Source of the DNA: Candidatus Moraniibacteriota bacterium
Lineage (GTDB): Bacteria > Patescibacteriota > Minisyncoccia > Moranbacterales > UBA1568
NCBI GenBank assembly: GCA_030648835.1
Contig: JAUSGT010000001.1
Span: 69,010-133,009, forward strand
Length of the DNA stretch: 64,000 nucleotides
Direction of reading: 5' to 3'
The position numbers were made by a program, and so were the translations under genes. Under the pieces are notes generated by a model that was not told the origin of the DNA, did not search any database, and saw nothing but the letters and a program-made list of their open reading frames with translations. Every line of letters starts with the position of its first letter. The stretch's first letter is position 1. Below are positions 27,308 to 47,952 of this stretch, piece by piece.

Positions 27308-27340
27308 TCGTTATGAAAGGGGAGGTGGTAGTATGGGTGT

Positions 27341-28153
27341 ATGCCAAAAAAACCACTCACCATCATCTCCTGGAATGTGAACGGCATCCGGGCAGTACAT
27401 AAGAAAGGCCTGTTTTTGCCGTTCATAGAAAAATACCGGCCGGATATTTTGTGTTTGCAGGAAACCAAAGCCCTCGAGGGTCAGGCGGAGATCGATTTGC
27501 CGGACTACGAAGAGTGTTGGAACTCGGCTGAGAGGAAGGGTTACTCCGGTACGGCCATATTCACTAAAGAAAAACCGTTAACTATTATCAATGGATTGCC
27601 TCAGGATATAATTAAAAAATTCCGTTTGGCACACGACGGCTATGGAGACCCGACGACGGAGGGGCGAGTTATTGCGGCTGAGTATCCGGATTTTTTTGTG
27701 GTGACGGTCTATACGCCCAATGCCAAAGAAGACTTGAGCCGTCTCAAGCTTCGCCACAAAGAGTGGGATCCGGCCTTTTTGGCATTTTGCAAAGAGTTGG
27801 AAAAAAAGAAGCCGGTCATATTTTGTGGAGACCTCAACGTCGCCCATACGGAAGATGATCTTGCCAATCCGAAACAAAATGTCGGCGAGCATGGTTTCAC
27901 GGACGAGGAACGGGGAGGTTTCGAGAATTTTATCAGTGCGGGATTTGTGGACACGTTTCGTCTGTTCCATCAGGGGAAAGGATTTTATTCGTGGTGGTCG
28001 CACTTCGCCAATGCGCGAGCCCGCAATGTGGGATGGCGCATCGATTATTTTTTGGTGAGTAGCGCACTCCAGTCGCGTGTGAAAGACTCTTTCATCCTTC
28101 CGGAAGTATTGGGGTCTGATCATTGCCCGGTAGGCATTACTCTAAAAATATGA
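27341..28153 (+). CDS. xth: Exodeoxyribonuclease III (AP endonuclease)
   Basis: LTIISWNVNGIRA...LCLQETK...SDHCPV are canonical ExoIII motifs. Confidence 0.9.
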   Translation: MPKKPLTIISWNVNGIRAVHKKGLFLPFIEKYRPDILCLQETKALEGQAEIDLPDYEECWNSAERKGYSGTAIFTKEKPLTIINGLPQDIIKKFRLAHDGYGDPTTEGRVIAAEYPDFFVVTVYTPNAKEDLSRLKLRHKEWDPAFLAFCKELEKKKPVIFCGDLNVAHTEDDLANPKQNVGEHGFTDEERGGFENFISAGFVDTFRLFHQGKGFYSWWSHFANARARNVGWRIDYFLVSSALQSRVKDSFILPEVLGSDHCPVGITLKI

Positions 28154-31660: not shown

Positions 31661-32110
31661 CTATCCTTTTTTGAAAACACGGCTATTTTTTAATTGCTCC
31701 AGAGCTGCACTTTCGCCTTTCATGCGCAGAACCTCAGTGAGGAGTTGCGGATCGCCCATAACAGCTAGCTTGTCCGGAATCTCCGGCGTATGATAATGAT
31801 CCCGTAATATGGCGTAGAGCCGCAAGACATCGTTTGATAATTTTATTTCAGCCACACCCGCGTACACCTGGGCATTGGCCATGTATATTTCACTGACGGA
31901 TGCCCCCGCTTTTTCGTCTATTATTTTCTTGACGATTTCATATTCCGGCAGAGCCAGGCATCCTTCGAGCGTGTGATAAGCATCATATTCCCTATTGATA
32001 TAGGTAACATTGGAATCTTTCTTTTCTTGTGGTACCGCGGGGGTCTGCGGTTCCTTCTTATCTTCGGGAAGTTCGGAGGGGAGTTCAAAAGCTTTGGCGG
32101 GGGTTGCCAT
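31661..32110 (-). CDS. Hypothetical protein (149 aa)
   Basis: Clean ORF convergent with pepA. No family recognised. Confidence 0.5.
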   Translation of the reverse strand: MATPAKAFELPSELPEDKKEPQTPAVPQEKKDSNVTYINREYDAYHTLEGCLALPEYEIVKKIIDEKAGASVSEIYMANAQVYAGVAEIKLSNDVLRLYAILRDHYHTPEIPDKLAVMGDPQLLTEVLRMKGESAALEQLKNSRVFKKG

Positions 32111-32256
32111 AGGATTTTGTATTAATGGATTGTCTTGTATTATAGCATGGACAAAAATCCTATAAGTTGTGGGTATTTGGCGTGGGCGTGGTAGGATGGG
32201 GGTATCAGAGGGGGAGATGGCGAGATATGGGTATTAAATAATTAATATTTAAAGTT

Positions 32257-32655
32257 ATGAAAGGATTCCACGCAAACATAGAAAAAGACACGCTCGAGAA
32301 CACCGACTTCCGTCGCGTGCTCTACACAGGCAAACACAGCCAGCTGGTACTGATGAGCTTGAAACCCAAAGAGGAGATCGGTCTCGAAACACATACCGAA
32401 AACGACCAGTTTTTTCGGATAGAAAAAGGCCACGGTATGTGCATCCTCGATGGCCATGAATACGCACTCGCCGACGGTTCAGCCATTGTGGTCCCGTCCG
32501 GCGCCAAGCACAATATCATCAATACGTCGGAGACAGAAGACCTCAAGCTCTATACCGTCTACTCTCCGGCACACCATAAGGACGGCATTGTCAGGGCTAC
32601 CAAAGAAGAAGCCGAAGCCAACGAAGCGGAGTTCGACGGCACAACTACCGAATAA
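32257..32655 (+). CDS. Cupin-domain protein, copy 1
   Basis: Small cupin barrel (GLETHTENDQFFRIEKGHGMCILDGHEYAL...VVPSGAKHNIIN). About 95% identical to the 37045 copy. Confidence 0.75.
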   Translation: MKGFHANIEKDTLENTDFRRVLYTGKHSQLVLMSLKPKEEIGLETHTENDQFFRIEKGHGMCILDGHEYALADGSAIVVPSGAKHNIINTSETEDLKLYTVYSPAHHKDGIVRATKEEAEANEAEFDGTTTE

Positions 32656-32677: not shown

Positions 32678-32717
32678 AAAGCCAGGGGCAGGCATAATAA
32701 ATATACTGAGCTGTGAA
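32678..32717 (+). repeat. Family-R 40-bp repeat, copy 1
   Basis: AAAGCCAGGGGCAGGCATAATAAATATACTGAGCTGTGAA. Five copies, all coding-capable for (K)AK(G/S)R(H/Q)(D/N/S)KYTE(Q/L)*. Confidence 0.6.
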
Positions 32718-32739
32718 TCGATAGAATAGTATTGATGAT

Positions 32740-32767
32740 ATTCTCACATTCTGCAGAATGTGAGAAT
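32740..32767. promoter_or_regulatory. 28-bp perfect palindrome P1 (ATTCTCACATTCTGCAGAATGTGAGAAT), candidate ArsR operator
   Basis: Perfect dyad 11 nt upstream of the arsR-family gene start. Two more copies at 33051 and 36936. Confidence 0.55.
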
Positions 32768-32778
32768 GTTGAAAAGGT

Positions 32779-33057
32779 ATGAAGAAGGTATTGAAGACAG
32801 CCAAACAATTGGAACGGCATTTCAAGGGAGCGGCCAATCATCGCCGCATCGAGATTTTGCTTTTGCTCGCTGATGATGAGGGTATGAGTTTGGACGGGAT
32901 TGCCGAGCGGTTAGATTGCAACATCAAAACCATTTCAGAACACACACGCAAGCTGGTGCAAGCCGGCTTGGTAAACAAGGCATACAAGGGGAGATCGGTC
33001 GAACACACGCTTTCTCCGTACGGAAAATCATTCTGCCGTTTTATAAGAACATTCTGA
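32779..33057 (+). CDS. ArsR/SmtB-family winged-helix transcriptional regulator
   Basis: HRRIEILLLLADDEGMSLDGIAERLDCNIKTISEHTRKLVQAGLV is a typical HTH_5 fold. Confidence 0.8.
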   Translation: MKKVLKTAKQLERHFKGAANHRRIEILLLLADDEGMSLDGIAERLDCNIKTISEHTRKLVQAGLVNKAYKGRSVEHTLSPYGKSFCRFIRTF

Positions 33058-33078
33058 CATTCTGCAGAATGTCAGAAT
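33051..33078. promoter_or_regulatory. 28-bp perfect palindrome P2 (ATTCTGACATTCTGCAGAATGTCAGAAT)
   Basis: Overlaps the arsR stop codon and lies ~70 nt upstream of the kinase-like gene. Confidence 0.55.
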
Positions 33079-33147
33079 GTCTGGGGTGGGTGGTTTTCGG
33101 GTGGGGGAGGTGGTAGGATGGACGTAACGAGTTAGGTAACAGGAATT

Positions 33148-34023
33148 ATGTCGGAATTCTCTCCAATTGAAGCGCTCAAAGTGCCCGTGAAGAAAGTGGC
33201 CAGGGCGGCGGAAAACGCGTTTTTTAATTATGAAAGGAATCAAAGTACTGAGGCGTCATGGGACACTCTTTTTGACAACAAAGCGGGAAAATTCCTGCGC
33301 ACCCAAGCGCTCTTCACGGTGATTCGCGATATGGTGCCGGACAGCCTCTTCGAAAAATTGACCGGGAGATTTTACAAATATCAGAAAGGTGGTCTGCCGA
33401 TTGATCCGGAGAAATATACTTTTGACGAAAAAAGGGTTGGTGGCGGTGGCGAATGCAATGTTTACAGGCTCAACTCGCTTGATTCGGATCTTCCGTCACT
33501 CGTGATCAAAATTGATCAATTCATTTCCCGCAGTACCGATAAAATGCTCACTCGGGCCAAGGCGGTAAAAAGTGAGTATGAAGAGAAAAAAGAATTATAT
33601 CGGGATCTGCCGGAATTGATTCCGGACGAGTTCCACTTTATCGGAAAAAGTCCGCGTGGGGGAAAGCCGGCCCTTCTGACGATCCAGGAGTTTCTCGGTA
33701 ATGAGAATGAAATGAGAGATCTCTTCCGAGGTATCAGTAAAGAAGAATTATTGGAAATCTTGCGGCAGAACTCTCGATTGCAGGCAGACTTTCGGAAATT
33801 TGCAGGAATTACGCTTGAGCGTGCTCGTGAAAAGGATGAGATGATCGATACTTTGGGAGACAAAAACCTGGTGCTTATACAGAGAGAAGGGAATACCTCT
33901 CTCATCTTTCTTGACCCGCATGTTACCAAGCATCCCGTTGCCGATGTGAAAGAGAGCGCGAGGATCCGGGCGGATCTCGATTATCTGGAGGGTATCGTCG
34001 CGACGCTCGATAATGGCGAGTAA
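33148..34023 (+). CDS. Protein-kinase-like fold protein (atypical kinase), tentative
   Basis: Gly-rich loop VGGGGECNVY, a VIKI (VAIK-like) lysine, and catalytic-loop-like GDKNLVL...IFLD. Not a P-loop kinase. Confidence 0.4.
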   Translation: MSEFSPIEALKVPVKKVARAAENAFFNYERNQSTEASWDTLFDNKAGKFLRTQALFTVIRDMVPDSLFEKLTGRFYKYQKGGLPIDPEKYTFDEKRVGGGGECNVYRLNSLDSDLPSLVIKIDQFISRSTDKMLTRAKAVKSEYEEKKELYRDLPELIPDEFHFIGKSPRGGKPALLTIQEFLGNENEMRDLFRGISKEELLEILRQNSRLQADFRKFAGITLERAREKDEMIDTLGDKNLVLIQREGNTSLIFLDPHVTKHPVADVKESARIRADLDYLEGIVATLDNGE

Positions 34024-34051
34024 TCGTCCGGGATGATAGGATGGACGTACT

Positions 34052-34669
34052 ATGAATTACAAACGCTACGATATTGTCGTCATCCCGCCAAAAGATATTA
34101 CCGAACAAGCCATCGAGATGAGCCGGGCATTGGAGCGGTTTGATTCTTTTTTCGTTCTCGATGATGAGACATTCCATCCGCACATTTCGCTCTACCATGC
34201 GCCCTTCGACGAGTCAGCGCTCGAAACCGTGATTGCTGTAGTGGGAGACATCGCGGCCGCTACGCAGTCATTTTTGTTACAGCAGGAAACGTATTATCCG
34301 GATCAAGGAGTATGGGTCGGAGTGCGCTATGTCGTCGACAAAGCCATTCTCGATCTGCATACCGCTGTCATCGAAGCGACGAAAGGCTATCGTGTGATAG
34401 AGGATGACGCCCGCTACAAGGCGCGCTGGGCGGATCTCGGCCCGCAGCAACGAAAAAACATAGAGGATTGCGGCTGGCCGGATGCCTTTACCGCTTATTT
34501 TCCGCATATCAGCTTTACGAAACTGAAGCAACCGAAAGCGGATGTCCTCGCCCATCTCCCGCAACACGACTTCTCATTTCTTGCCGACCATATCGGTTTG
34601 TATGAACTGGGGGCAGACGGGACATGCGCCAAGCTCGTGGCGGACTTCCGGCTTGAAAAGAGGGACTGA
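34052..34669 (+). CDS. 2H phosphoesterase superfamily protein (LigT/CPDase-like)
   Basis: Two H-x-S motifs (HPHISLY and FPHISFTK) spaced as in the 2H fold. Confidence 0.65.
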   Translation: MNYKRYDIVVIPPKDITEQAIEMSRALERFDSFFVLDDETFHPHISLYHAPFDESALETVIAVVGDIAAATQSFLLQQETYYPDQGVWVGVRYVVDKAILDLHTAVIEATKGYRVIEDDARYKARWADLGPQQRKNIEDCGWPDAFTAYFPHISFTKLKQPKADVLAHLPQHDFSFLADHIGLYELGADGTCAKLVADFRLEKRD

Positions 34670-34784: not shown

Positions 34785-35504
34785 ATGGAAGAAGAATTAC
34801 TTACAATCGGTCAAGCTGCTGAATATCTTGGGGTCGCTCTGAACACGTTACGTCGTTGGGACGAAAGTGGTAAATTGGTTGCGATCAAAAAGGATGGTGG
34901 CACTCATCGATATTATCGTGAGAAAGACTTGGAAATTTTTGCCAGTGATTTGATGATGTTTGCTTCTGGGTGGATCGAGAGCGGAGTTGAGTTTCCAGGG
35001 ACATTCTATTGTTCGACCAGCTCGATTTTCAATGCCAGACTGACGAAAATGGAGTACGTGCTCATGCAGAAGCCGGGATTTGAAAAATTATATTCCTTGA
35101 TTGTTCTCGTTACCGGAGAGATTGGTGACAATTCGTTTGCTCACAACTTGGGGAAGTGGCCGGATACAGCAGGAATTTTTTTCGGTTACGACCTAGAGAA
35201 GCGGATCATTGTCCTGGCTGATCGAGGACTGGGTGTATTGGAGACGTTGTGCCAGGTGCGTCCAGACCTTCCGAGTCATGTGGCGGCGGTGGAAGTTGCC
35301 TTTACCGAATTTATTTCTGGCCGGGCACCGGAAAAGCGAGGTAACGGACTGAAACTCGTTCGCGAGGTCGTCACGGATCAGCCAATTGATTTATTTTATA
35401 CCAGCGGGGATGCCGAGGTGCGCATGCAAGGCGCGGATAAAGTGTTTCGTGTTACGCGCGGGCAACATATCTTGAGGGGATGTTTAGCAAAGATAGAATT
35501 TTAA
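34785..35504 (+). CDS. MerR/excisionase-type HTH fused to GHKL (histidine-kinase-like) ATPase domain
   Basis: N-terminal LTIGQAAEYLGVALNTLRRWDESGKL. ATPase N box (GEIGDNSFAHNLG), G1 (DRGLGV) and G2 (RGNGLKLV). Confidence 0.6.
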   Translation: MEEELLTIGQAAEYLGVALNTLRRWDESGKLVAIKKDGGTHRYYREKDLEIFASDLMMFASGWIESGVEFPGTFYCSTSSIFNARLTKMEYVLMQKPGFEKLYSLIVLVTGEIGDNSFAHNLGKWPDTAGIFFGYDLEKRIIVLADRGLGVLETLCQVRPDLPSHVAAVEVAFTEFISGRAPEKRGNGLKLVREVVTDQPIDLFYTSGDAEVRMQGADKVFRVTRGQHILRGCLAKIEF

Positions 35505-35812
35505 TCCATTGTAAAAAGCATATGAAATTACAGCTAGAAAAATTTGGCACGACGCTCATATCGCGGGAATTGGGGAGCGAGGCCTTCAAGGCATTCCAGT
35601 CGACTCTGCGCGAGCTTTCTCCTGATGAAGAGCTAGAAATAGATTTTTCTGGTGTACTGACATTGTCACCGTCATGGGCTGATGAATTTTTAAGTCCATT
35701 GCTGAATCAATTGGGTGACAGATTAATTCTTTTACCGAGTGACAATCTTTCAGTACACGCAACGCTCCGAATTCTTCAAGAGGCTAATAAGCAGAGTTTT
35801 ACGATGAAGTAA
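35480..35812 (+). CDS. STAS-like DUF4325-family protein (putative partner-switching antagonist)
   Basis: LEIDFSGVLTLSPSWADEFLSPLL resembles DUF4325. 25-nt overlap with the GHKL gene. Confidence 0.5.
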   Translation: MFSKDRILIHCKKHMKLQLEKFGTTLISRELGSEAFKAFQSTLRELSPDEELEIDFSGVLTLSPSWADEFLSPLLNQLGDRLILLPSDNLSVHATLRILQEANKQSFTMK

Positions 35813-35882: not shown

Positions 35883-35922
35883 AAAGCCAAGAGCAGACAG
35901 AGTAAATATACTGAGCAGTGAA
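35883..35922 (+). repeat. Family-R repeat, copy 2 (variant AGCAGACAGAG)
   Basis: AAAGCCAAGAGCAGACAGAGTAAATATACTGAGCAGTGAA, followed by the conserved leader GTATTAAGGACTGGAAGAAATAAGAAT ATG. Confidence 0.6.
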
Positions 35923-35949: not shown

Positions 35950-36591
35950 ATGGCGTATATCTTTCTTGATGAAAGTGGTGATTTGGGGTTTGACTTCAAA
36001 AAGAAGGGCACTTCCAAGTTTTTTATTGTTACCATTCTCTTTACCGAAGACTCCAGAGGAGGGATTGAAAAGGTGGTGAAGAAAACACATTCAGAACTTG
36101 CGAAGAAATTCAAAAGACGTGTTGGTACATTGCATGCGGTTCAAGAAAAGCCCATTACCCGTACCCGTTTTCTGAAACGGATTGCCGAGAAGGAATGTGG
36201 TGTTATGGCTATTTATCTCAACAAGAAGAAGGTACATACGCATCTCCAGGACGAAAAACAAGTGCTTTACAATTACGTGACCAATATTCTCTTAGATAGA
36301 ATCTATACGAAAAAAATTCTTTCCCCGGATCTTGTCATAGAGCTCATCGCATCTCGGCGCGAAACCAACAAGTTTCTTAATGAAAACTTCAAAGATTACT
36401 TGAGCCGGCAAATAAAGAATAACCACAAAGGTCTTATGAAAATTTCCATTAAAACACCGGCTGAAGAGAAGTGTCTTCAGGCAGTAGACTTTCTGAGTTG
36501 GGCAATTTTTCGTAAATATGAGCGCGGAGATGAAAGTTACTACAATCTTTTCAAGAGAAAAATCATCGAGGAGAATCCTTTATTTCCGTAA
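35950..36591 (+). CDS. DUF3800-family protein
   Basis: N-terminal MAYIFLDESGD and C-terminal LQAVDFLSWAIFRKYE are DUF3800 hallmarks. Internal start of the 35812 ORF. Confidence 0.65.
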   Translation: MAYIFLDESGDLGFDFKKKGTSKFFIVTILFTEDSRGGIEKVVKKTHSELAKKFKRRVGTLHAVQEKPITRTRFLKRIAEKECGVMAIYLNKKKVHTHLQDEKQVLYNYVTNILLDRIYTKKILSPDLVIELIASRRETNKFLNENFKDYLSRQIKNNHKGLMKISIKTPAEEKCLQAVDFLSWAIFRKYERGDESYYNLFKRKIIEENPLFP

Positions 36592-36873: not shown

Positions 36874-36913
36874 AAAGCCAAGAGCAGACAGAGTAAATAT
36901 ACTGAGCAGTGAA
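36874..36913 (+). repeat. Family-R repeat, copy 3
   Basis: Identical to the copy-2 variant. Immediately preceded by a stop codon in the peptide frame, so not part of an intact gene. Confidence 0.6.
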
Positions 36914-36963: not shown

Positions 36964-37044
36964 GATTGGGTGGGTGGGGGGAGGTGGTATGATGGGTGTA
37001 CCAGAGGGGAAGATTCGTGTATTAAATAATAATATTTCAATACT

Positions 37045-37443
37045 ATGAAAGGATTCAACACACACATAGAAAAAGATACGCTCGAGAACACCGACTTCCG
37101 TCGCGTGCTTTACACAGGCTCGCACAGCCAGCTGGTATTGATGAGTTTGAAACCCAAAGAGGAGATCGGCCTCGAAACACATACCGGAAACGACCAGTTT
37201 TTTCGGATAGAAAAAGGCCACGGCATGTGCATCATCGACGGCCATGAGTATGCACTCGCCGATGGTTCGGCTATCGTGGTCCCGTCCGGCGCCAAACACA
37301 ATATCATCAACACGTCGGAGACAGAAGACCTCAAGCTCTATACCGTCTACTCTCCGGCGCACCATAAGGACGGCATTGTCAGGGCTACCAAAGAAGAAGC
37401 CGAAGCCAACGAAGCGGAGTTCGACGGCACAACAACCGAATAA
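37045..37443 (+). CDS. Cupin-domain protein, copy 2 (duplicate)
   Basis: Near-identical to 32257..32655, including ~80 bp of upstream leader and ~60 bp downstream. Confidence 0.75.
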   Translation: MKGFNTHIEKDTLENTDFRRVLYTGSHSQLVLMSLKPKEEIGLETHTGNDQFFRIEKGHGMCIIDGHEYALADGSAIVVPSGAKHNIINTSETEDLKLYTVYSPAHHKDGIVRATKEEAEANEAEFDGTTTE

Positions 37444-37465: not shown

Positions 37466-37505
37466 AAAGCCAAGGGCAGGCATGATAAATATACTGAGCT
37501 GTGAA
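37466..37505 (+). repeat. Family-R repeat, copy 4
   Basis: AAAGCCAAGGGCAGGCATGATAAATATACTGAGCTGTGAA, then the leader GTATTAAGGATTGGAAGAAATAAAATT ATG. Confidence 0.6.
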
Positions 37506-37532: not shown

Positions 37533-38018
37533 ATGAAAAAAACTAGTAGCAAGGGGATTGTTGGCGTATCTGGTGAATATTTTGTGGCTGCGGAACTTTC
37601 TCAGCGAGGCATTGTGGCTACCTTGACTCTCAAAAACACTCCCTATATCGACATACTTGCCACAAACTTAGAAAAGGGCACAACCGCCAACATTCAGGTG
37701 AAAACTATGTCTGTCGATAACAATGCTGGTTGGAGATTGGGGGAAAAAGATGGATTGCCTTCAAATATAAAGAATCACTTTTATGTGCTCGTTGATTTAC
37801 ATGGACCTGGTAAATTGCCCGAATATATAATCATACCCAAGAAAGTATTAGCAGATTTTATAAATAAGGGTCATGCTGAATGGCTTTTAGGAAAAAAGAA
37901 GGATGGCTCCTCTAGAAAAAATACTGGCGTTAGAGTTTTTGATCCAAACAGAAAAGTGTCTACTCGAAAATTTGCCGAAAAATACGTAAATAATTGGAGC
38001 ATATTAGATTTGTGGTAG
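37533..38018 (+). CDS. PD-(D/E)xK nuclease-fold protein (putative)
   Basis: GVSGEYFVAAEL...IDILATN...ANIQVKT matches an E...D...(Q/E)xK arrangement. Internal start of the 37482 ORF. Confidence 0.45.
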   Translation: MKKTSSKGIVGVSGEYFVAAELSQRGIVATLTLKNTPYIDILATNLEKGTTANIQVKTMSVDNNAGWRLGEKDGLPSNIKNHFYVLVDLHGPGKLPEYIIIPKKVLADFINKGHAEWLLGKKKDGSSRKNTGVRVFDPNRKVSTRKFAEKYVNNWSILDLW

Positions 38019-38026
38019 TAAAAGTT

Positions 38027-38374
38027 ATGGATAAGATAAAAGATTTGACTAAAAGAATACTAGCTTTCCGCAATGCTCGGGACTGGAAGCAATTTCACAA
38101 TCCGAAAGACGTGGCGCTCTCGCTGGTTTTGGAAGCGGCGGAGGTTATGGAACATTTCCAGTGGAAGAACCCGGCGGAAATTGAAGAGTATGTAAAAAAG
38201 CATAAGAAAGATATAGGCGAAGAATTGGCTGATGTTTTCAATTGGGTGTTGCTGCTGAGTCATGATTTGGGGATAGATATTGTAGAAGCGGCCAAAAAGA
38301 AAGTTAAAAAGAACGAAAAAAAGTACCCCGTAGAAAAAGCCAAAGGCAGGCATGATAAATATACTGAGCAGTGA
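38027..38374 (+). CDS. MazG-like nucleoside triphosphate pyrophosphohydrolase (small all-alpha NTP-PPase)
   Basis: ILAFRNARDWKQFHNPKDVALSLVLEAAEVMEHFQWK...ELADVFNWVLLLSHDLGIDI. The C-terminal tail is encoded by Family-R copy 5. Confidence 0.75.
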   Translation: MDKIKDLTKRILAFRNARDWKQFHNPKDVALSLVLEAAEVMEHFQWKNPAEIEEYVKKHKKDIGEELADVFNWVLLLSHDLGIDIVEAAKKKVKKNEKKYPVEKAKGRHDKYTEQ

Positions 38375-38375
38375 A
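38336..38375 (+). repeat. Family-R repeat, copy 5 (forms C-terminus of MazG-like gene)
   Basis: AAAGCCAAAGGCAGGCATGATAAATATACTGAGCAGTGAA. Confidence 0.6.
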
Positions 38376-38420
38376 TTGATTACCTCGCTGAGCAGGATTT
38401 CGCTAGGAATGTTAGGATAT

Positions 38421-38436
38421 ACGTAACGAGTTACGT
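38421..38436. promoter_or_regulatory. Palindrome ACGTAACGAGTTACGT upstream of AbrB-like gene (autoregulatory operator candidate)
   Basis: A 7-2-7 dyad. A related leader (GGTAGGATGGACGTAACGAGTTAGGTAACAGG) precedes the kinase-like gene. Confidence 0.4.
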
Positions 38437-38456
38437 AACAGGTTACATAACAAACT

Positions 38457-38615
38457 ATGAACAAAGAAATTAGAAAACTCACTAAGTTAGGGGGAAAATC
38501 CATCGGGCTGACCTTGCCGATTGAATTAGTTCGGGAGTTGGGGTGGAGGGAAAAACAGAAAGTGACCGTCAAGCGTGTTCGTGGGGGTGTGATGATTAAA
38601 GATTGGAAGAAATAG
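38457..38615 (+). CDS. AbrB/MazE/SpoVT-family small DNA-binding protein (antitoxin- or controller-like), 52 aa
   Basis: LTKLGGKSIGLTLPIELVRELGWREKQKVTVK fits the swapped-hairpin beta-barrel family. Not in the ORF track (under 60 aa). Confidence 0.45.
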   Translation: MNKEIRKLTKLGGKSIGLTLPIELVRELGWREKQKVTVKRVRGGVMIKDWKK

Positions 38616-38658
38616 GACTAATCTTGCAATAATATTAATGACGTGTTATTATTAGTGT

Positions 38659-39621
38659 ATGTCTGGTAAACAAGAAATAAAAATAATTCAAGAAACTTTC
38701 GACATAAACGCTATTTATGCAAGACGTGTTTTTGCTTCGGTGAATATTTCAAACTTTTTAGAGGAAGCGAGACAAATTATAACGAGCAAACCAAAGCCAT
38801 TTGTGAAATGGGTTGGGGGGAAGCGACAATTACTCAAGCAGTTTCGACTCCTTGATCTTTATCCACCGGACGAGTTTGATCCTGAGAAGGCAAGATATTT
38901 TGAGCCGTTTGTAGGGGGAGGCGCAGTGTTCTTTGATTTACTTCCGAGAAAGGCTTATTTGTCTGATCTTAATTTTGAGCTTGTCACAACTTATAATGTT
39001 ATTAAAAATGATGTTGAAAAGTTGATTACATCGTTAAAAAAACAAAAATATAATAAAGAGTATTATCTGAAAATCCGTTCAAAAAATCCTGAAAGGTTGT
39101 CTGATCTACAAATTGCTACTCGTTTTATATTTTTGAATCGCGCCGGCTTCAATGGGATGTATCGTGTAAATAGTAAAGGAGGGTTTAATGTTCCTTTCGG
39201 TAAATACGAGAATCCGCTTATTTGTGATGAAAAAAATCTTCGGAAAGTTTCGAAGGCGTTGCAGAATGTTGAAATAAAACACCAAGACTATAAGTTCGTT
39301 TTGAAGAAAGCAAAGAAAAGAGACTTTATATATTTTGATCCGCCATATCATCCAGTAAGTAAAACGGCAGCGTTTACTTCATATACCTCACAAGGTTTTG
39401 GGGAAAAAGAACAAATAGAATTACGTGATACATTTTTGAAACTTCACAAGAGAGGTTGTTTTGTGATGCTTTCAAATTCTGATGCGCCTTTTATTAATAA
39501 AATTTATTCTGAAATTAAAAAATATGGTGTCAGAATTAATAAGGTTGAAGCAGGGCGCGCAATAAATTCAAAGGCTTCTGGAAGGGGTAAGATCACAGAA
39601 ATATTGGTAACTAACTATTAA
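38659..39621 (+). CDS. Dam-family N6-adenine DNA methyltransferase (alpha class)
   Basis: FVKWVGGKRQLL, EPFVGGGAVFF, FLNRAGFNGMYRVN, IYFDPPYHP and LSNSD align with Dam motifs. Confidence 0.9.
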   Translation: MSGKQEIKIIQETFDINAIYARRVFASVNISNFLEEARQIITSKPKPFVKWVGGKRQLLKQFRLLDLYPPDEFDPEKARYFEPFVGGGAVFFDLLPRKAYLSDLNFELVTTYNVIKNDVEKLITSLKKQKYNKEYYLKIRSKNPERLSDLQIATRFIFLNRAGFNGMYRVNSKGGFNVPFGKYENPLICDEKNLRKVSKALQNVEIKHQDYKFVLKKAKKRDFIYFDPPYHPVSKTAAFTSYTSQGFGEKEQIELRDTFLKLHKRGCFVMLSNSDAPFINKIYSEIKKYGVRINKVEAGRAINSKASGRGKITEILVTNY

Positions 39622-39625
39622 TCTT

Positions 39626-40384
39626 ATGGCAAATAATAATTCGTGGAATAAAATTTTCGAAGATAATAATATTTTAGAGCACGATTTTTCTAAAAGCCCT
39701 TTTTATTTGTCTGCAGAAATGATAAAAAAATCAGTACAAGAGTTTAAGAAAACTAATGAGAAAGAGGTGCGTTGCTTATGTAAGATGGATACGCGAGAAA
39801 GCGTTCCAGAAATAATGAGAAGAAATGGATTGGTTTTGTTGCCAGTCAAAAATAAATATTATGTGATAGTAAACGGCGAAGGATATGTCGATATACCTGA
39901 AATCAATAGTGAAGCCGAAATCTACAACACTAAATTGGATTTTGATTTAGACACAGCGAAAATTGGAAACTCAGAAATGCAGCATCTTGATTTTGCTTAT
40001 GCTTCAAGCCTTATTAGAACATTCATGAGCGATCCTTCGCTAGTTCTAACAATTAGAGGGAGGAAATATACACCAGAGTTTAGTTATAAAATTGGTAACA
40101 ATATAATTGATACGAAGGGTGTTCAAACTGAAGTTGATGCCGGTTATGAAGGAAAGGACAAGATTGTTTTGATAGAAGCAAAGAACTCATCTACTAAAAA
40201 TACAATCATTAGACAATTGTATTATCCATATAGACAATGGGCAGAACACACAAAAAAGGAAGTCTTCTTATTATTTTTCGAGAAGAGGATTGATGAATAT
40301 TTGATATGGCAATACAGGTTTGCTGATAAAGACAGCTACGATTCTATTAAATTAGTTAGATCTAAAAAATATAAAATTGTTTAA
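39626..40384 (+). CDS. Putative type II restriction endonuclease (between two MTases; MboI/DpnII-like gene order)
   Basis: Sits between two DNA MTases in an M-R-M arrangement and has a PD-(D/E)xK-like VDAGYEGKDKIVLIEAK. Family not verified. Confidence 0.5.
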   Translation: MANNNSWNKIFEDNNILEHDFSKSPFYLSAEMIKKSVQEFKKTNEKEVRCLCKMDTRESVPEIMRRNGLVLLPVKNKYYVIVNGEGYVDIPEINSEAEIYNTKLDFDLDTAKIGNSEMQHLDFAYASSLIRTFMSDPSLVLTIRGRKYTPEFSYKIGNNIIDTKGVQTEVDAGYEGKDKIVLIEAKNSSTKNTIIRQLYYPYRQWAEHTKKEVFLLFFEKRIDEYLIWQYRFADKDSYDSIKLVRSKKYKIV

Positions 40385-41137
40385 GTGTCTGAAAAAGAGA
40401 TAAAACTGCATCCGGATGAGTTTGAAATGGAGTGCACTACAGTATGGGCATTTCCTCGTCGTGGTAATTGGGCTACACACAAGTCGGATTGGCGTGGTAA
40501 TTGGGCGCCAGAAGTTGCTCGAAATTTGATATTGCGTTATTCAAAGGAGGGTGATCATCTACTAGATTGCATGATCGGTGGTGGAACAACGGCAATAGAG
40601 GCAAAAATATTGAATCGTCATATTACTTGCGTTGATGTTAATGAAGAAGCTCTCAAACGGACAAGAGACGCTTTGAAATTTGATGTTGATAACAAAGCAA
40701 AACAACGAATAATAAAGTGCGATGCTCGAAACATGAGTTTTATCAAGGACGGAGAAATAGATTTTGTTCTCACTCATCCACCATACGCGGATATTATAAA
40801 ATATAGTGATGGAAAATTAGAGGATGACTTATCAGGTATACATAATATAGATGCCTTTGTAGATGAGATGGAGAAAGTTATCAAAGAAATGTTTCGAGTA
40901 CTAAAGAAAGGAAAATATTGTGCGATTTTGATGGGGGATACAAGACGGAATAAAATGTATCAGCCTCTCGCATTTAAGGTAATGGGTAGATGTCTGAGCG
41001 CAGGATTTGTCTTGAAAGAAGATATTATTAAAAGGCAGTTTAACTGTAAAGCAACTGGTTTTTGGGTGAATAGGTCAAAAGAGAGCAACTTTCTTTTAAT
41101 TATGCATGAACACTTATTTATTTTTCAGAAAATTTGA
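40385..41137 (+). CDS. DNA methyltransferase, N4/N6 family (second MTase of R-M module)
   Basis: AdoMet motif LLDCMIGGGTT and catalytic LTHPPYADI. Confidence 0.8.
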   Translation: MSEKEIKLHPDEFEMECTTVWAFPRRGNWATHKSDWRGNWAPEVARNLILRYSKEGDHLLDCMIGGGTTAIEAKILNRHITCVDVNEEALKRTRDALKFDVDNKAKQRIIKCDARNMSFIKDGEIDFVLTHPPYADIIKYSDGKLEDDLSGIHNIDAFVDEMEKVIKEMFRVLKKGKYCAILMGDTRRNKMYQPLAFKVMGRCLSAGFVLKEDIIKRQFNCKATGFWVNRSKESNFLLIMHEHLFIFQKI

Positions 41138-41250
41138 GATGCCAAAAAAGATACCATGAAAGATGTGAAAGATAAAGTAAAAAGATTTATTAATTGCATA
41201 GGTGAAAAACGTGGTGACGTTAATGAAATATTGATCATAAATTATTAAAT

Positions 41251-42924
41251 ATGCTTAACCTATTTAAAACTAAAAAAATACTTCAAGGCCCAGACTGGTC
41301 TTTTCAAGACGAAGCCGTAAAAAAAGTAGTTTCTGATTTTTTAAAGGAGCCACAAAGCAAAAAATTATTAGTCATCCCAACTGGAGGGGGGAAAACTATT
41401 GTTGGTTTTAAGGTCATTAACGAACTAATCGAAAAAGGCTTTCTTAAAAATGGCAAAAAAGCAGTTTGGATAGTTCATACAAAATGGTTAAAAAAACAAA
41501 CTGAACTAAAGCTAGTTTCAGCAATTGAAAAATTTCATTTTAATAAAGAAATACTCAGTATTCTTGAAATAAGAATGAAGTCAGATGCGCGTAATAATAT
41601 TTTTTTAACTCAAAAATCAAAAGAATATAAGATGGTAGTTATTGATGAGGCTCACCATTCAGCTGCAAATACTTACAAAGATTTTTTTAGACCTGATGTA
41701 AATGTACTTGGTCTAACAGCTACGCCCACAAGAACTGATGATCTCACGCTTGATTTTAAGGATATATCGTATGCAATTACTTTTAACGAACTTGTAAAAA
41801 GAAAAGTTATACTTTTACCAAAATTTATTACTGTAGAAACTGGGTTAACTATTGACGCCAGATCATTAAATTACTATTCGGAAAATGATTTTATTAAATT
41901 CGATATTGATGAAAGAAATAATATTATTGCCGAGAAAATATTCTTACTTAAAAGAAATAATAAAAGATCTTTTAATAAAATAATAATTTTCGTTGGATCT
42001 AATGCACATGTTAAGGAATTGTATGAAATACTGAAGAGAAAAAATAAGTTTTATGGAAACTTGTTCAAGTATGTTGGATACATATATAGTGGTGATAATA
42101 ATGATTTAAATATAGATAATGACTCATATTTAGAGAAACAACAGGGAATCAGCTCGTCAATATTAGTTAATTGTATGATTTTAAATGAAGGATACGACGA
42201 TCCTTCTATTGACACGGTAATAATGGCTACACCAAGTAACTCTATACTTTACTATATGCAATGCGTCGGGCGCGTGGTGCGTAATCCGGGTGGGTATAGC
42301 TCGAATGCAAATGTGGTGGAGATGGTAGATAAATTACCAAACATAAATTATAGGATTGATAACCGCTGGCTTTTTGCTGAAATTTCAGATCTCCTAGAGC
42401 CCGAGGTCATTGACGTTAGTTATGACTTTAACAACAAGGCCTCAGTTATTAGGAAGATTCTTTTGGAACACAAGGTCAAAGCTAAATATATTGATTTATT
42501 TGATGAGAAACAAAGCTTAGAGGATTTCACCTTACTCCTATTTGCAGACGCGCCAAATTATGAAGCTTCGACATGGAAGCCAATATATTTATTTGAAAAA
42601 AATCGTTCCAAATATATAGATGCTTTTAATAAAATCTCTGCTAATGTTTCTGAATATTCACGCTATAATGATGAATTTGTTTTTTTCCAGACTCTCAATT
42701 TTTCTAAAGACAATTATTATTTTAGGTATCCAGAAATGCGAATATCTCTCATACTAGCCCTTGAAAGAGCTAATAATTTAAAAAATTTAAAACAAAAGGT
42801 TGATTGTATTAAATACTATACTTTTCATGAAACACAATATAAAGCTTGGTGGAAAATTATTATTTCTTTGCTATTTAAATCATTAACTAAAATTTATGCA
42901 AACCTTAAAGGAAGTAGAGCTTAA
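41251..42924 (+). CDS. SF2 DEAH-box helicase (ResIII-like)
   Basis: Motif I VIPTGGGKT, II VIDEAHH, III LGLTATP and VI QCVGRVVR. Confidence 0.8.
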   Translation: MLNLFKTKKILQGPDWSFQDEAVKKVVSDFLKEPQSKKLLVIPTGGGKTIVGFKVINELIEKGFLKNGKKAVWIVHTKWLKKQTELKLVSAIEKFHFNKEILSILEIRMKSDARNNIFLTQKSKEYKMVVIDEAHHSAANTYKDFFRPDVNVLGLTATPTRTDDLTLDFKDISYAITFNELVKRKVILLPKFITVETGLTIDARSLNYYSENDFIKFDIDERNNIIAEKIFLLKRNNKRSFNKIIIFVGSNAHVKELYEILKRKNKFYGNLFKYVGYIYSGDNNDLNIDNDSYLEKQQGISSSILVNCMILNEGYDDPSIDTVIMATPSNSILYYMQCVGRVVRNPGGYSSNANVVEMVDKLPNINYRIDNRWLFAEISDLLEPEVIDVSYDFNNKASVIRKILLEHKVKAKYIDLFDEKQSLEDFTLLLFADAPNYEASTWKPIYLFEKNRSKYIDAFNKISANVSEYSRYNDEFVFFQTLNFSKDNYYFRYPEMRISLILALERANNLKNLKQKVDCIKYYTFHETQYKAWWKIIISLLFKSLTKIYANLKGSRA

Positions 42925-44044
42925 GTTTGATCAACTTTTACTTGACCCAAATAATCCTCGTTTTGCTAAGCATAGCGATGAGCTTGTTGCTGAAGATGAC
43001 TATGAGGAAATGCAGTCCGAGACCTTTTCAAAGATGATTCAGAGGGAAAACAACTTTGAAATTGCGGAGCTTGCAAAAAATATTAGCAAAAATGGGTACC
43101 TAGGTTTTGACAGGATGTTTGTTAAAAAATTAAAAGGATCTAAGTTTCTAGTTATTGAAGGCAATAGAAGGTTAGCTGCCATTTATTTTCTTCTAAAGCA
43201 GGAAGAATCACACCGCACAAGAGGAGCTCTCGCCCCAGAAATTAAAAAAACATTTTTAAAGATACCCTGTGTTGATCTTACAAATTGGGAAACGGAAGAT
43301 ATAAAGAGGTTGCTTGGCCTCAGACACTATGATTCTGTAAAAGATTGGAGGCCCCTGCCAGGTTCATTCAATCTTTTCTTAACGTATATGGCGGAATATG
43401 CAAAAGTGAACAATATTGAAATCTTGAATAGCGACCACGCAAAGCATTTTATTTATGATCAAAATATTAGTAGAAAGATAGCAGATATCTATGCAATGAA
43501 GGAAGCGAGGGTTAAGTCAATGATCTTAACTTACAGAGTATATCTTCAAGTTTTGGAATATCACAACGATATCAACTTTGAAACAACGAATCTTTTTTCC
43601 ATAATTGAAGAGACTATAAGTAAGGAAATTTTGAGGAAAAGATTTGAGTTTGATCCATCCGCGGGCCAGTTTTCTGAAAATGGACTAGAATTGTTTATTG
43701 ACTTATGTATTGGAAAAGATGGAAGTGCCCCAGTTATAACTGAAGTGTCACGCGGCGAATCTACTCTAAGAGACTATGCTTATGTTCTACAGGAAGGGAG
43801 TGACTACGATCGTGAACGAATAGAGCTGAACAAAGAAAAAAGTGGTGATGTGAAAGCAGATGTTAAATCAAGTCAAAATCAAAGAAATTTAATAAATACT
43901 CTGAAGCAAATTAAATTAGAATTAGGAAAAATTAATCTTGACCAGATAAAGATTGATGATATTACAGACCGTGAAAAAGAAATTATCGATGATCTACAGG
44001 AAACACTGAACAAGCTAAAAGGGGCATCAGGGGGAAAACTTTAA
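42896..44044 (+). CDS. ParB/Srx-fold nuclease-like domain protein
   Basis: LLLDPNNPRF (ParB box I-like) and VIEGNRRLAAIYFL (GxRR motif). 29-nt overlap with the helicase gene. Confidence 0.7.
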   Translation: MQTLKEVELKFDQLLLDPNNPRFAKHSDELVAEDDYEEMQSETFSKMIQRENNFEIAELAKNISKNGYLGFDRMFVKKLKGSKFLVIEGNRRLAAIYFLLKQEESHRTRGALAPEIKKTFLKIPCVDLTNWETEDIKRLLGLRHYDSVKDWRPLPGSFNLFLTYMAEYAKVNNIEILNSDHAKHFIYDQNISRKIADIYAMKEARVKSMILTYRVYLQVLEYHNDINFETTNLFSIIEETISKEILRKRFEFDPSAGQFSENGLELFIDLCIGKDGSAPVITEVSRGESTLRDYAYVLQEGSDYDRERIELNKEKSGDVKADVKSSQNQRNLINTLKQIKLELGKINLDQIKIDDITDREKEIIDDLQETLNKLKGASGGKL

Positions 44045-44049
44045 ATAGT

Positions 44050-44991
44050 ATGAGTGATCTTTACTTTCGAAAAACTTACAGTGAATTCGTTGAGTTTGTT
44101 TCCAACACTAATGATGAACTTATTATCTTATGTCCGTATATAAAACTAGAACCATTAAAATTGCTATTAGAAAAAGTTAAACCAGGAATAAAGGTAATAG
44201 TTGTAGCAAGATGGAAAATTAGTGATTTGGTATTTGGGAGTTCTGATATTGAGGTTTTTGAATATTTGAAAAGTCTTAATCATAGTTTTTACATTAACAA
44301 TAAAATACACCTTAAGGTCATTATTAAAGATAAAAGGAATATATTAATTGGAAGTGCAAATATAACAGGATCTGGGCTTGGGCTGTTTGATAGTTCAAAT
44401 ATTGAGGCTATTGCCATCGAGAGCTTAGATGAGAAGTATTTACCATCAGTATATTCAATACTAAGAGAATCAATAGAAGTCGATGATGTTTTGGTTAATA
44501 CAATATCTGAAAAGTTAGAAGGGTTTCAAAATGTTAGAGAAGAAAAAGACAAAATTACTGCTGAATTGGGGGAATTAGAAAAACAGATATTTATAAAAAA
44601 GAAAAAAGGGATTTTGGTTTATGATTTTCCTTTTACAGGATCGCCGGCAGTACTCCTTAAAGCTATAAATGAAAAAGATATTAATGATACTGTCCAACAT
44701 GATCTTCAGGTATTAAAATTAACTACTAGAGAGATTAATCTTAGTTTATTGAGGGAGGCATTTTTAACGTCAGACGCCTATATTTGGCAAGAACAAAATA
44801 TCCCAGAAGAAGCTCTCTTTGGAAAGTATTCGGAGTTACTTCATAATGCTCTAATTGATGATCCTAAGCCTTATCGAAAACAGGTAAAGGAGTTAGTAGT
44901 AAATATGTTTGTTTGGACATCAGAACTTTCAGACGATTATGTTATAAAAAAATATAATCATACCCAATCTCTAGTCAGGAGACAAAATTAA
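44050..44991 (+). CDS. PLD-family (HKD) nuclease-like protein
   Basis: A single HKD motif HLKVIIKDKRNILIGSAN (H-x-K-x4-D-x6-GSxN). Confidence 0.75.
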   Translation: MSDLYFRKTYSEFVEFVSNTNDELIILCPYIKLEPLKLLLEKVKPGIKVIVVARWKISDLVFGSSDIEVFEYLKSLNHSFYINNKIHLKVIIKDKRNILIGSANITGSGLGLFDSSNIEAIAIESLDEKYLPSVYSILRESIEVDDVLVNTISEKLEGFQNVREEKDKITAELGELEKQIFIKKKKGILVYDFPFTGSPAVLLKAINEKDINDTVQHDLQVLKLTTREINLSLLREAFLTSDAYIWQEQNIPEEALFGKYSELLHNALIDDPKPYRKQVKELVVNMFVWTSELSDDYVIKKYNHTQSLVRRQN

Positions 44992-44999
44992 TATACGGA

Positions 45000-45467
45000 A
45001 TGAAGAAAAGTATTACTGATATCAATTGGATGAGGTTCAAAACGACTAAAGGTCAAGAGTTTGTTGTGGGTGTAGATTTTACCGCAGAAGACGCATTCAT
45101 TAAAGCTAAAGAATTGCGACAAGAAGGAAAAGCAATAGATGCTCTAGGTGTAATCGATGTATCACTTTATTTAGATTGGAATAGGCCTGCTGCACATAAT
45201 ATTAAGGCAAGCATTTTACTTACTTTAAAGCGATTTGGTGAAGCAATTAGTTCGTGTGATGAAGCAATTCGACTGAATCCGAATTTGGCGGAGTCTTTTA
45301 ATAATAAAGCAGTAATATTAAAGGCATCTGAGAATTATGAGGATGCACTTACCTTGATTGAGAAAGCCCTTGATTTAAATCCAGATAATCCCGCACTTAT
45401 TTATAATAAGGAGAGTATTTTAGAAGCTCTGCGAAATCAAAATGGTCTAAATAGGAAAATGGGCTAG
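45000..45467 (+). CDS. TPR-repeat protein
   Basis: Three or more TPR-like repeats (AISSCDEAIRLNPNLAESFNNKAVIL...ALDLNPDNPALIYNK). Confidence 0.7.
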   Translation: MKKSITDINWMRFKTTKGQEFVVGVDFTAEDAFIKAKELRQEGKAIDALGVIDVSLYLDWNRPAAHNIKASILLTLKRFGEAISSCDEAIRLNPNLAESFNNKAVILKASENYEDALTLIEKALDLNPDNPALIYNKESILEALRNQNGLNRKMG

Positions 45468-45543
45468 GTACTTTTTTCTTGCAAAAGGAGTACAAAGGCG
45501 GCACAACTGAATAGCGAACTATCGAGAGAGTGGCGGTGGGGGG

Positions 45544-45572
45544 CTTGCTATTTTCATAAAAGTATGCTATAA
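45544..45572 (+). promoter_or_regulatory. Sigma70-like promoter (TTGCTA-17-TATAAT)
   Basis: Near-consensus -35 and a perfect -10 with 17-nt spacing, about 125 nt upstream of the AbiEii-like gene. Confidence 0.5.
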
Positions 45573-45654
45573 TGGGTGTGTAAAAGAAGAAAAAAATAAA
45601 AACCATCCAAAATATTAAAAGAAGTTAGGAAAGAGCCATATTCACAAGATATTC

Positions 45655-45687
45655 CACACCCCAGTCTTCTGGGGTGTTTTTATTTAT
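45655..45687 (+). terminator. Rho-independent terminator-like hairpin between promoter and AbiEii-like gene
   Basis: ACACCCCAG tctt CTGGGGTGT followed by TTTTTATTTATT, 12 nt before the start codon. Confidence 0.5.
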
Positions 45688-45699
45688 TAACCCACTAGT

Positions 45700-46908: not shown

Positions 46909-46922
46909 TTAGATAGGAAAGT

Positions 46923-47528: not shown

Positions 47529-47669
47529 ATGAAGAAAAGAGAGTCAGATACCTTTTTGATACGAATTTCTCAGTCTCTGGGCTTCCTCCATAGGCGGACA
47601 GGGGGTTTTTGTTTGGGTGTATACTGAACAAATGCAGATGTCATTCAATAATTAAGGCAATAAAAGAAT

Positions 47670-47924
47670 ATGGATGAGCACGTTGAGAAGGAAGGACTCA
47701 AACATCTTGAGAACATAGAGCAGGACCTCGACGAGATAAAAGAACGCACGCCGACGCCGCGGCGTGCTTTTACCTATGGTCTGTGGCAAGGGGCAGGGGC
47801 ACTCATCGGAGGCATTCTGGCGCTGACTCTCTTGGGCTGGGCATTATCGTTCTTCGGGATCATTCCCGGCTTTGCCGATGTTGCCAAGTACTTCCAAGAT
47901 ATTGTGAGCAACTTTCGCCGCTAG
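47670..47924 (+). CDS. Small membrane protein (84 aa)
   Basis: Charged N-terminus plus a double TM hairpin (GLWQGAGALIGGILALTLLGWALSFFGII). Confidence 0.45.
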   Translation: MDEHVEKEGLKHLENIEQDLDEIKERTPTPRRAFTYGLWQGAGALIGGILALTLLGWALSFFGIIPGFADVAKYFQDIVSNFRR

Positions 47925-47952
47925 CCAATCCAACAAAAACTCAAGAAAAAAA

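Follow-up and report, generated by a model that had tools for sequence, protein, structure and literature searches.

ArsR/SmtB-type autorepressors such as CzrA, SmtB, CadC, HlyU, NolR and SdpR provide the nearest described counterpart to a system found in a 64,000-nucleotide (nt) stretch of contig JAUSGT010000001.1 (positions 69,010 to 133,009 of the forward strand; Candidatus Moraniibacteriota bacterium, metagenome-assembled genome GCA_030648835.1), subsequently referred to as the window. The system consists of a gene for a 92-residue ArsR-fold protein, here called arsR, and a palindromic site, the dyad, of which the window holds three copies (P1, P2 and P3). Its protein has the same winged-helix fold as the autorepressors, and in most lineages a dyad likewise lies beside the promoter of the gene. 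It differs from them in having neither the α3 CXC nor the α5 DxH..HxxE metal site and in scoring below the NCBIfam cut-offs. The site differs as well, being a perfect palindrome of four heptads (28–32 bp) that is conserved across the superphylum and is found in the stop codon of the gene and dispersed inside open reading frames (ORFs).

Several other systems share parts of this arrangement. In REP/RAYT, as here, short palindromic repeats stand on both sides of a single-copy gene and recur elsewhere in the genome; however, the present protein has an ArsR fold rather than that of an HUH/Y1 transposase, the copy number is far lower (at least 3–6 per assembly), the dyad has no GTAG or CGTC head, and copies occur inside genes. 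Rickettsia palindromic elements (RPE) are similarly in-frame palindromic repeats in the housekeeping genes of a reduced genome and are read as extra peptide, but they are 100–150 bp long, compared with ~30 bp (10 codons) for the dyad, and are unrelated in sequence. Unlike RPE, the dyad is near-identical across deep lineages and is paired with the gene for a dedicated DNA-binding protein. The parS/ParB and Ter/RTP systems also comprise a few conserved palindromes per genome, some of them in genes, with the gene for the binder adjoining a site. Here the fold is unlike that of ParB, no partner ATPase is linked, and dyads lie at recombination joints and in genome-specific repeats. Finally, in comparison with the core sites of tyrosine recombinases (dif/Xer, integron attC), an 11-6-11 reading of the dyad is possible and its arms are exchanged, but it is multi-copy and only 1 of the 118 listed loci contains a tyrosine recombinase. 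In the searchable literature no description was found of the DNA core, of the encoded peptide ILQNVRM or of the regulator, and nothing relevant on ArsR or palindromic motifs in Patescibacteria or the candidate phyla radiation.

The reading preferred here, to which a probability of about 60% is assigned, is that of an autoregulated, Patescibacteria-wide ArsR-fold protein with a cognate four-heptad dyad that is recombinogenic and dispersed. The genes for a kinase-like protein and a 2H phosphoesterase that follow in the window would simply abut P2.

The ArsR-fold protein and its site

The 92-residue protein had been placed in the ArsR family by a first-pass annotation of the window, and this placement is borne out. 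Pfam HTH_20 and HTH_5 match with E ~1e-9, above their cut-offs, and the AlphaFold2 (AF2) model (predicted local distance difference test, pLDDT, 90.5) contains the elements α1-α2-α3-αR-β1-β2-α5. Foldseek superimposes the model on CadC, CzrA, SmtB, HlyU, PagR and NolR with template modelling (TM) scores of 0.8–0.86; the closest solved structures by sequence are HlyU, an Rv2642-like ArsR and CadC. There are 1112 homologues at E ≤1e-3, the best 120 being 67–96% identical. In an alignment of 35 homologues the recognition helix KTISEHTRKL is invariant and neither an α3 CXC/α3N nor an α5 DxHx10HxxE metal site is present. Among the Cys and His candidates only Cys47 and His14, His21, His55 and His76 are conserved in the alignment. 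The protein falls below every curated NCBIfam cut-off, with HTH_metalloreg giving 45 bits against a cut-off of 55.

The gene is bracketed by P1 and P2. From the 3′ end of P1 to the ATG at 32779 there are 11 nt, and P2 covers the TGA stop codon (33055–33057), encodes the last codons (..T F stop) and extends to a perfect 32-bp four-heptad dyad at 33049–33080. The spacing of P1 and the overlap of P2 with the stop codon agree with the first-pass annotation, as do the 28-nt gap between the kinase-like and 2H genes and the location of P3 upstream of the second of two cupin genes. The ATG of that gene, at 37045, lies 81 nt from P3. The same annotation had described all three sites as perfect 28-bp palindromes. 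This is correct for P1 and P2, whereas P3 is imperfect, with a C in both arms at the variable position and 13 of its 14 pairs formed. That the sites exceed chance is confirmed by a search of the window with the dyad pattern, which returned 3 matches at ≤3 mismatches against 0 in 100 shuffles. All three sites belong to an accessory region and span no more than 4.2 kb.

A search of one genome per species with the pattern TNACATTCTGCAGAATGTNA found the dyad in at least 118 stretches from 86 assemblies, against ~9 expected by chance from a uniform-composition estimate; one locus, L099, is a chance match to the pattern. The stretches are nearly all labelled Patescibacteria and include Saccharibacteria, many Parcubacteria lineages and Doudnabacteria. 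The 3–6 dyads seen per assembly are lower bounds. Across 159 sites, arm positions 1–8 and 11–14 are essentially invariant and positions 15–16 (C, A) complete a heptad, which gives the 28–32-bp consensus ACATTCT-N-ACATTCT-GC-AGAATGT-N′-AGAATGT of four heptads. In L045 and L066 (Colwellbacteria JACOXB01) both sites share a genome-specific variant of the outer heptad, ATTAT..ATAAT, which suggests concerted change of the sites inside a genome. The viral contig collection contained no copy of the dyad and no relative of the ArsR-like, kinase-like or 2H protein, and a phage origin of the dyad was rejected on this basis.

An arsR-like gene is present in 40 of the 118 listed dyad loci. In 32 modules (31 listed loci and the window) it lies between two dyads ~310–360 bp apart with P2 over the stop codon, the last codons of the regulator, ACA TTC TRA, forming the outer heptad of P2. 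P1 is frequently the variant ATTCCAACATTCTGCAGAATGTTGGAAT, which is also a perfect palindrome, and in most lineages a TG-extended TATAAT-like box can be seen by eye ~5–25 nt after it. The geometry of P1 and this downstream box fits autoregulation, and the P1-gene-P2 architecture is, as judged from the loci compared, ancestral. It is strongly suggested by the same comparison that the dyads are binding sites of the ArsR-like protein. The protein would bind the dyad as a dimer or as a pair of dimers. Binding at P1, just upstream of the −10 box in most lineages, would repress the protein's own gene, and P2, built into the stop codon, may be a second site that acts by looping or as a roadblock.

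A gene for a PIF1-family helicase recurs beside arsR modules (~40 arsR loci) and is also seen near the kinase-like or 2H loci L002, L004 and L012 of Moranbacteria.

Recombination joints and dispersed copies

The extent of the module is seen by comparison with its closest relative, L133, in which the ArsR-like protein is 96% identical. In L133 the genes and sites run Fic-P1-arsR-P2; beyond P2 lies a convergent gene, and a kinase gene is missing from that position. At the DNA level L133 and the window are homologous from 3 nt left of P1 to 3–7 nt right of P2, with ~90% identity inside the module and random identity outside. This alignment shows P1-arsR-P2 to be a discrete module with the dyads as its homology boundaries. 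The region of P3 aligns as the sequence left of P1 joined to the sequence right of P2, the G-rich tract that follows P2 being shorter by 11 nt. The P3 region is therefore this junction without arsR, and its C..C mismatch marks the arm exchange. P2 of L133 is the reciprocal G..G hybrid. At the level of these alignments the hybrids show that arms have been exchanged between dyads, with P3 as the arsR-less P1-left/P2-right junction. The repeat left of P1 and P3 is 91% identical over 91 nt, and the G-rich tract with its −10-like box is also kept at the start of L014, a contig whose start coincides exactly with the sequence beyond P2 in the window. Longer multi-copy repeats, specific to the genome and with the dyad at their centre, are found in four other genomes; their copies share at least 70 nt on either side of the dyad and are present in both orientations.

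The tract itself (GGGGTGGGTGGTTTTCGGGTGGGGG) is quadruplex-like; it lies directly right of P2 at 33083–33111, and is also found right of P3 (36967–36985) and at positions 1–30 of L014. In one genome the dyad-centred repeats are flanked by cattttg-type microsatellite-like runs. An assembly-break signal was considered and rejected, since the 13 dyads that lie ≤300 nt from a contig end do not significantly exceed the 9.4 expected.

The other copies have varied neighbours. A Pfam scan of the 58 genes that start ≤150 nt from a dyad gave NUDIX (3), TspO (2), YgjP (2) and YhcG (2), then singletons that include AspRS/LysRS, DnaE, TrmD, Fmt, Def and ComEC. Among 122 neighbour ORFs of arsR modules only PIF1 (6), TspO (4) and LexA (3) recur. 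A coherent dyad regulon was rejected, as no family dominates among the genes beside dyads or beside arsR modules. A strong −10-like hexamer follows the dyad on 18% of gene-start sides and 11% of gene-end sides, compared with 8% of random positions; a consistent box is seen at P1 of arsR only, and a general promoter architecture of dyads was likewise rejected.

ORF calls in the dyad loci are crude, and conclusions on gene context were therefore drawn from Pfam-verified cases. Eleven dyads lie between convergent ORFs of ≥100 residues, and in the five such cases tested 8 of the 10 flanking ORFs match Pfam (for example GatB/MiaA and DUF4342/TrmD). A further 12 dyads lie in frame inside 11 Pfam-verified genes of 7 families: MnmA, YchF, a PrmC-type methyltransferase, PGK, TGT, class II FBA and TIM. 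All 12 are in one frame, reading HS[NHD]ILQNVR[MI]. L030 has two in-gene dyads in tandem, one with a TTAAGAA centre. Alignments of the in-gene cases to solved structures continue through the dyad. In two related YchF genes the dyad occupies different sites, each gene thereby providing the empty site for the other, and at one of these sites the dyad is a net gain of 8 codons.

Across the loci compared, the further copies, a few per genome, are thus shown beside unrelated genes, in convergent gaps, at repeat centres and in frame in housekeeping genes. As the dyad is near-identical across Patescibacteria, brackets an arsR-type gene, marks joints and lies inside essential genes, the evidence does not make it a switch dedicated to the kinase-like and 2H genes; as far as sequence comparison goes, the dyad is not a private operator of adjacent genes.

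It is possible, if doubtful, that P1-arsR-P2 is a selfish element of autonomous type, with solo dyads as its non-autonomous derivatives; the protein would target or protect the ends, and a host function would mobilize them. The parallels would be a RAYT gene with its REPs or an IS with its MITEs. Consistent with this, the module is bounded by dyads and has different flanks in close relatives, one junction is present in the window both with and without arsR, and the insertions in core genes are in frame and polymorphic for presence or absence. The longer genome-specific repeats with a dyad at their centre in both orientations, and the near-identity of the dyad across deep lineages, also speak for such an element. 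However, a 92-residue ArsR fold has no catalytic domain, no transposase or recombinase is linked to it in the neighbour scans, with a tyrosine recombinase in just 1 of the 118 listed loci, and no target-site duplication is visible. The low copy number (at least 3–6 per assembly) and the absence of dyad and protein from the viral contigs also argue against it.

A related and equally tentative proposal is that a non-catalytic winged-helix protein marks a symmetric site at which modules, its own included, are exchanged. The pair could then represent a previously unrecognized, Patescibacteria-wide recombination/mobility or chromosome-marking system of a new kind rather than an ordinary repressor, and as part of the same conjecture the site may also have colonized loops of essential enzymes in a fixed reading frame.

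A hypothetical 149-residue protein with no family match accompanies the modules and is encoded at 31661–32110 (− strand) in the window, at 1694–2158 in L014 and at 1431–1841 in L133, in three different arrangements among these close relatives. A 34-nt repeat is identical to the 3′ end of a MazG-like gene (..KAKGRHDKYTE stop) and has five copies at the boundaries of small accessory genes: after cupin copy 1, before the DUF3800 gene, before P3 and cupin copy 2, after cupin copy 2 and at the end of the MazG-like gene. It is also found after the cupin gene of L014, and appears to be a second repeat that marks cassette boundaries.

The kinase-like and 2H genes

The two genes that follow P2 are co-oriented with arsR, at gaps of 90 nt (arsR to kinase-like) and 28 nt (kinase-like to 2H). 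A kinase-like fold had been proposed for the 291-residue protein, and structure prediction supports it. The AF2 model (pLDDT 85.4) gave 79 matches in the PDB at E ≤1e-3, and all those listed are kinases (RIO1, RIO2, CK1, CASK, MK2 and ADCK3), with a probability of 1.0, TM scores of 0.31–0.40, and RIO1, RIO2 and CK1 on top. The family comprises 430 representatives of 50%-identity clusters, all of ~280 residues. Invariant residues in 28 sequences are G100, E102, K121, D234, N240, D256 and H258, while E145 shows a conservation of at least 90%. From the model, G100 would belong to the glycine loop, K121 would be the β3 Lys and E145 the αC Glu, D234 and N240 would lie in the catalytic loop, and D256 would be the metal-binding Asp. 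The protein thus shares with RIO-type and other minimal protein kinase (PK)-like ATPases or kinases the two-lobed PK-like fold and the residues G100, K121, E145, D234, N240 and D256, the last of these before H258. It differs from them in its catalytic loop, DTLGDKN rather than HxDxxxxN, in TM scores of only 0.3–0.4, and in an extra N-terminal four-helix bundle (residues 6–72). At the sequence level the protein has no match in Pfam, NCBIfam, PADLOC or the PDB. Ten distant family members gave no real Pfam match, and the family profile gave only spurious TAL-repeat matches against the PDB; a sequence link to known kinases was rejected, none being found by Pfam or by profile search of the PDB.

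The identification of the 205-residue protein as a 2H phosphoesterase also stands. H44 (HPHIS) and H152 (PHIS) are invariant in 21 sequences, Pfam PF13563 (2_5_RNA_ligase2) matches with E 2e-5 and 25.1 bits, below the 27-bit cut-off, and the family profile matches Bacillus subtilis YjcG (PDB 2d4g, E 7e-4). With the YjcG/LigT-type proteins it has in common the two H-x-S/T motifs and these matches; it differs in a ~30-residue insert (RYKARW..N..CGW) between the lobes and shares only 18% identity with the LigT in L001.

The kinase-like gene was compared in ten independent contexts, in three of which it adjoins a 2H gene of this subfamily: the window, L014 (kinase-like protein 94% and 2H protein 90% identical to those of the window) and L010, with the order swapped. 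In L008 the 2H gene lies 2.2 kb away, and it is absent from the fetched surroundings of the other six. This distribution indicates a real but loose functional link. The nine contexts outside the window have neither a dyad nor an arsR-like regulator. A −10-like box of the kinase-like gene lies 33 nt downstream of the end of P2, and a separate one belongs to the 2H gene. The box, GGTAGGATGGRSGTA, occurs five times in the window, where 0.25 copies are expected, each time immediately upstream of a gene. It ends 0–2 nt before the ATG of the 2H and ExoIII-like genes, which suggests leaderless transcripts. By this comparison the kinase-like and 2H genes are a separate two-gene accessory cassette that abuts P2 in the window.

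The first-pass annotation had likened the pair to RNA healing modules. However, the kinase is PK-like, whereas that of Pnkp-Hen1, Trl1-type and Rtc systems is of the P-loop type, and no ligase, Hen1 or RtcB was found among the called or annotated neighbours of the kinase-like contexts examined (the two metagenome loci L134 and L135 left out), so the analogy fails in its defining features. Its second suggestion, an Acb1-like counter-defence function, finds no support, as the viral contigs hold no relatives and neither protein has a PADLOC match. Membership of a defence system was rejected on the same PADLOC result.

The first-pass annotation had further proposed a local ArsR-type repressor, with P1, P2 and P3 controlling its own gene, the kinase-like/2H pair and cupin copy 2 as a small regulon. 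Such a regulon would be in keeping with the ArsR/SmtB fold, with dyads upstream of all three targets, with the co-orientation and short gaps of the three genes, between which a terminator scan found no terminator-like site, and with the position of P3, which adjoins the −35 position of the −10-like box of cupin copy 2. It is nevertheless unlikely. P2 is built into the stop codon of the regulator in 32 modules, the genes downstream being unrelated or convergent, and is therefore a part of the regulator gene rather than of the kinase-like gene. P2 of L133 faces a convergent gene, the other independent kinase-like loci have no dyad and no arsR, and P2 stands 33 nt from the kinase box while 2H has a box of its own. 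P3 is a recombination product of P1 and P2.

Other accessory genes lie further downstream. At 34785–35812 and 35950–36591 a gene for a MerR/excisionase-type helix–turn–helix (HTH) protein overlaps a DUF4325 STAS-like gene and is followed by a DUF3800 gene. Residues 1–53 of the HTH protein match PADLOC mad1 (E 3e-13), and its C-terminal domain has no assignment. The group looks like accessory or defence-type genes. A low-GC island at ~38000–48000 (32–37% against ~48%) contains genes for a Dam-type methyltransferase, DUF6996/6997, a ResIII helicase, a PLD-type nuclease and AbiEii.

Table 1. Features of the arsR locus in window coordinates, with related loci in other genomes given by number
Feature	Position or loci	Strand	Remarks
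Cupin copy 1	32257–32655	+	Upstream neighbour of the arsR module
Segment left of P1 (MazG-3′-end-like tail and spacer)	32678–32739	+	Duplicated left of P3, 36874–36935
P1	32740–32767	none	ATTCTCACATTCTGCAGAATGTGAGAAT; perfect 28-bp palindrome; left edge of the arsR module
ArsR/SmtB-fold gene (92 residues)	32779–33057	+	Between P1 and P2
P2	33051–33078	none	ATTCTGACATTCTGCAGAATGTCAGAAT; perfect palindrome; right edge of the arsR module
G-rich tract and −10-like box right of P2	33083–33126	+	GGTAGGATGGACGTA; repeated right of P3 minus 11 nt
Protein-kinase-like gene (291 residues)	33148–34023	+	Uncharacterized family
Own −10-like box of the 2H gene	34035–34049	+	Ends 2 nt before its ATG; same box in L014
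2H phosphoesterase gene (205 residues)	34052–34669	+	Motifs H44-x-S and H152-x-S
P3	36936–36963	none	Hybrid dyad: left arm of P1 and right arm of P2, one mismatch
Cupin copy 2	37045–37443	+	Downstream of P3; 95% amino acid identity to copy 1
Copies of the −10-like box GGTAGGATGGRSGTA	27327–27341, 32190–32204, 33112–33126, 34035–34049, 36986–37000
34-nt MazG-end repeat	32678–32711, 35883–35916, 36874–36907, 37466–37499, 38336–38369
In-gene dyad loci	L030, L040, L042, L043, L051, L111, L112, L080, L107, L130, L097
Longer dyad-centred repeats	L034/L044/L047/L072/L122; L033/L057/L114; L022/L116; L078

Symmetry of the site and implications

Several points weigh against an autoregulated protein with a cognate, dispersed dyad. 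The pairing of protein and site is drawn entirely from co-occurrence and co-conservation in sequence. In the window and L133, the 11 nt between P1 and the ATG contain no −10 box, and the autoregulatory geometry is thus not visible there. No recombinase or transposase is associated with the dyads; a linked tyrosine recombinase was rejected as a candidate, being present in only 1 of the 118 listed loci. Several dyad contigs are labelled as non-Patescibacteria (Gammaproteobacteria, Verrucomicrobiota and others), which is assumed to reflect binning or labelling problems. As arsR and the kinase-like and 2H genes are co-oriented and closely spaced with no terminator-like site between them, co-regulation by read-through is possible in this genome; at most, the cassette would be co-transcribed with arsR in this way.

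The remaining point concerns the variable arm position 9, which is occupied by the pairs A-T (108), C-G (25), G-C (11) and T-A (5). It is complementary in 94% of copies, compared with ~51% expected from the marginal frequencies. The in-gene copies also keep this complementarity, although there the N of the right arm is a synonymous GTN position. The flanks are often complementary as well, giving stems of up to 48 bp. Since the N types can be mixed inside a single genome, the window included, the complementarity is not co-variation with the specificity of the protein, and a plain operator model does not explain it. Selection for a hairpin, arm-to-arm template switching or conversion of whole copies are possible causes.

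The dyads might therefore be regarded as hairpins, either RNA stem-loops formed in both directions or DNA cruciforms, which would act as orientation-independent terminators, stabilizers or insulators and to which the protein is incidental. Besides the complementary positions and flanks, this would suit the copies between convergent genes, the A...T bias of the flanks (AAAAC..GTTTT) and the stability of the stems, with DNA hairpin free energies of −10.5 kcal/mol for P1 and −13.4 kcal/mol for P2 (z-scores ~ −6). Even so it is improbable, as the sequence of the stem is invariant across classes, unlike that of structure-only elements, and copies lie inside essential ORFs. The stems are AT-rich, P2 in the window being followed by the G-rich tract; no T-run follows P1, P2 or P3 and none of them was flagged by the terminator scan, and on these grounds a role as intrinsic terminators was rejected. 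Separate GC-rich hairpins often stand beside the dyads of other loci, and Rfam contains no family matching the dyad, giving only sub-threshold hairpin noise.

In Bacillus the gene for RTP, a small winged-helix protein, lies beside its own Ter sites, and parS is the only few-per-genome site known to be tolerated in genes and kept at synonymous positions. A parS-, matS- or Ter-like organization of the chromosome (segregation, macrodomains or fork arrest), in place of gene regulation, would be in keeping with these same features of the dyad, with the small winged-helix protein whose gene adjoins its own sites and with the incoherent set of neighbouring genes, but it is very doubtful given that the three sites of the window are clustered within 4.2 kb of an accessory region, that a perfectly symmetric site cannot give polar fork arrest, and that no ParA-like or SMC-like partner occurs among the 122 neighbours of arsR modules.

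For annotation, it follows from the preferred reading, a dispersed dyad with an autoregulated ArsR-fold partner, that a dyad beside a gene in these genomes should not count as evidence of co-regulation. The kinase-like family, with 430 cluster representatives, no model in any library and a recurrent 2H partner, poses an enzymatic question of its own. The position of dyads at module edges and in essential genes bears on how cassettes move and on how essential genes are invaded by selfish or regulatory DNA. A large part of bacterial diversity belongs to the Patescibacteria, whose regulation and genome dynamics are almost uncharted. A protein–site pair with almost base-for-base conservation in many of their classes would, as far as found, be the first lineage-wide cis-element for Patescibacteria, and offers a direct experimental handle in the few cultivable Saccharibacteria.

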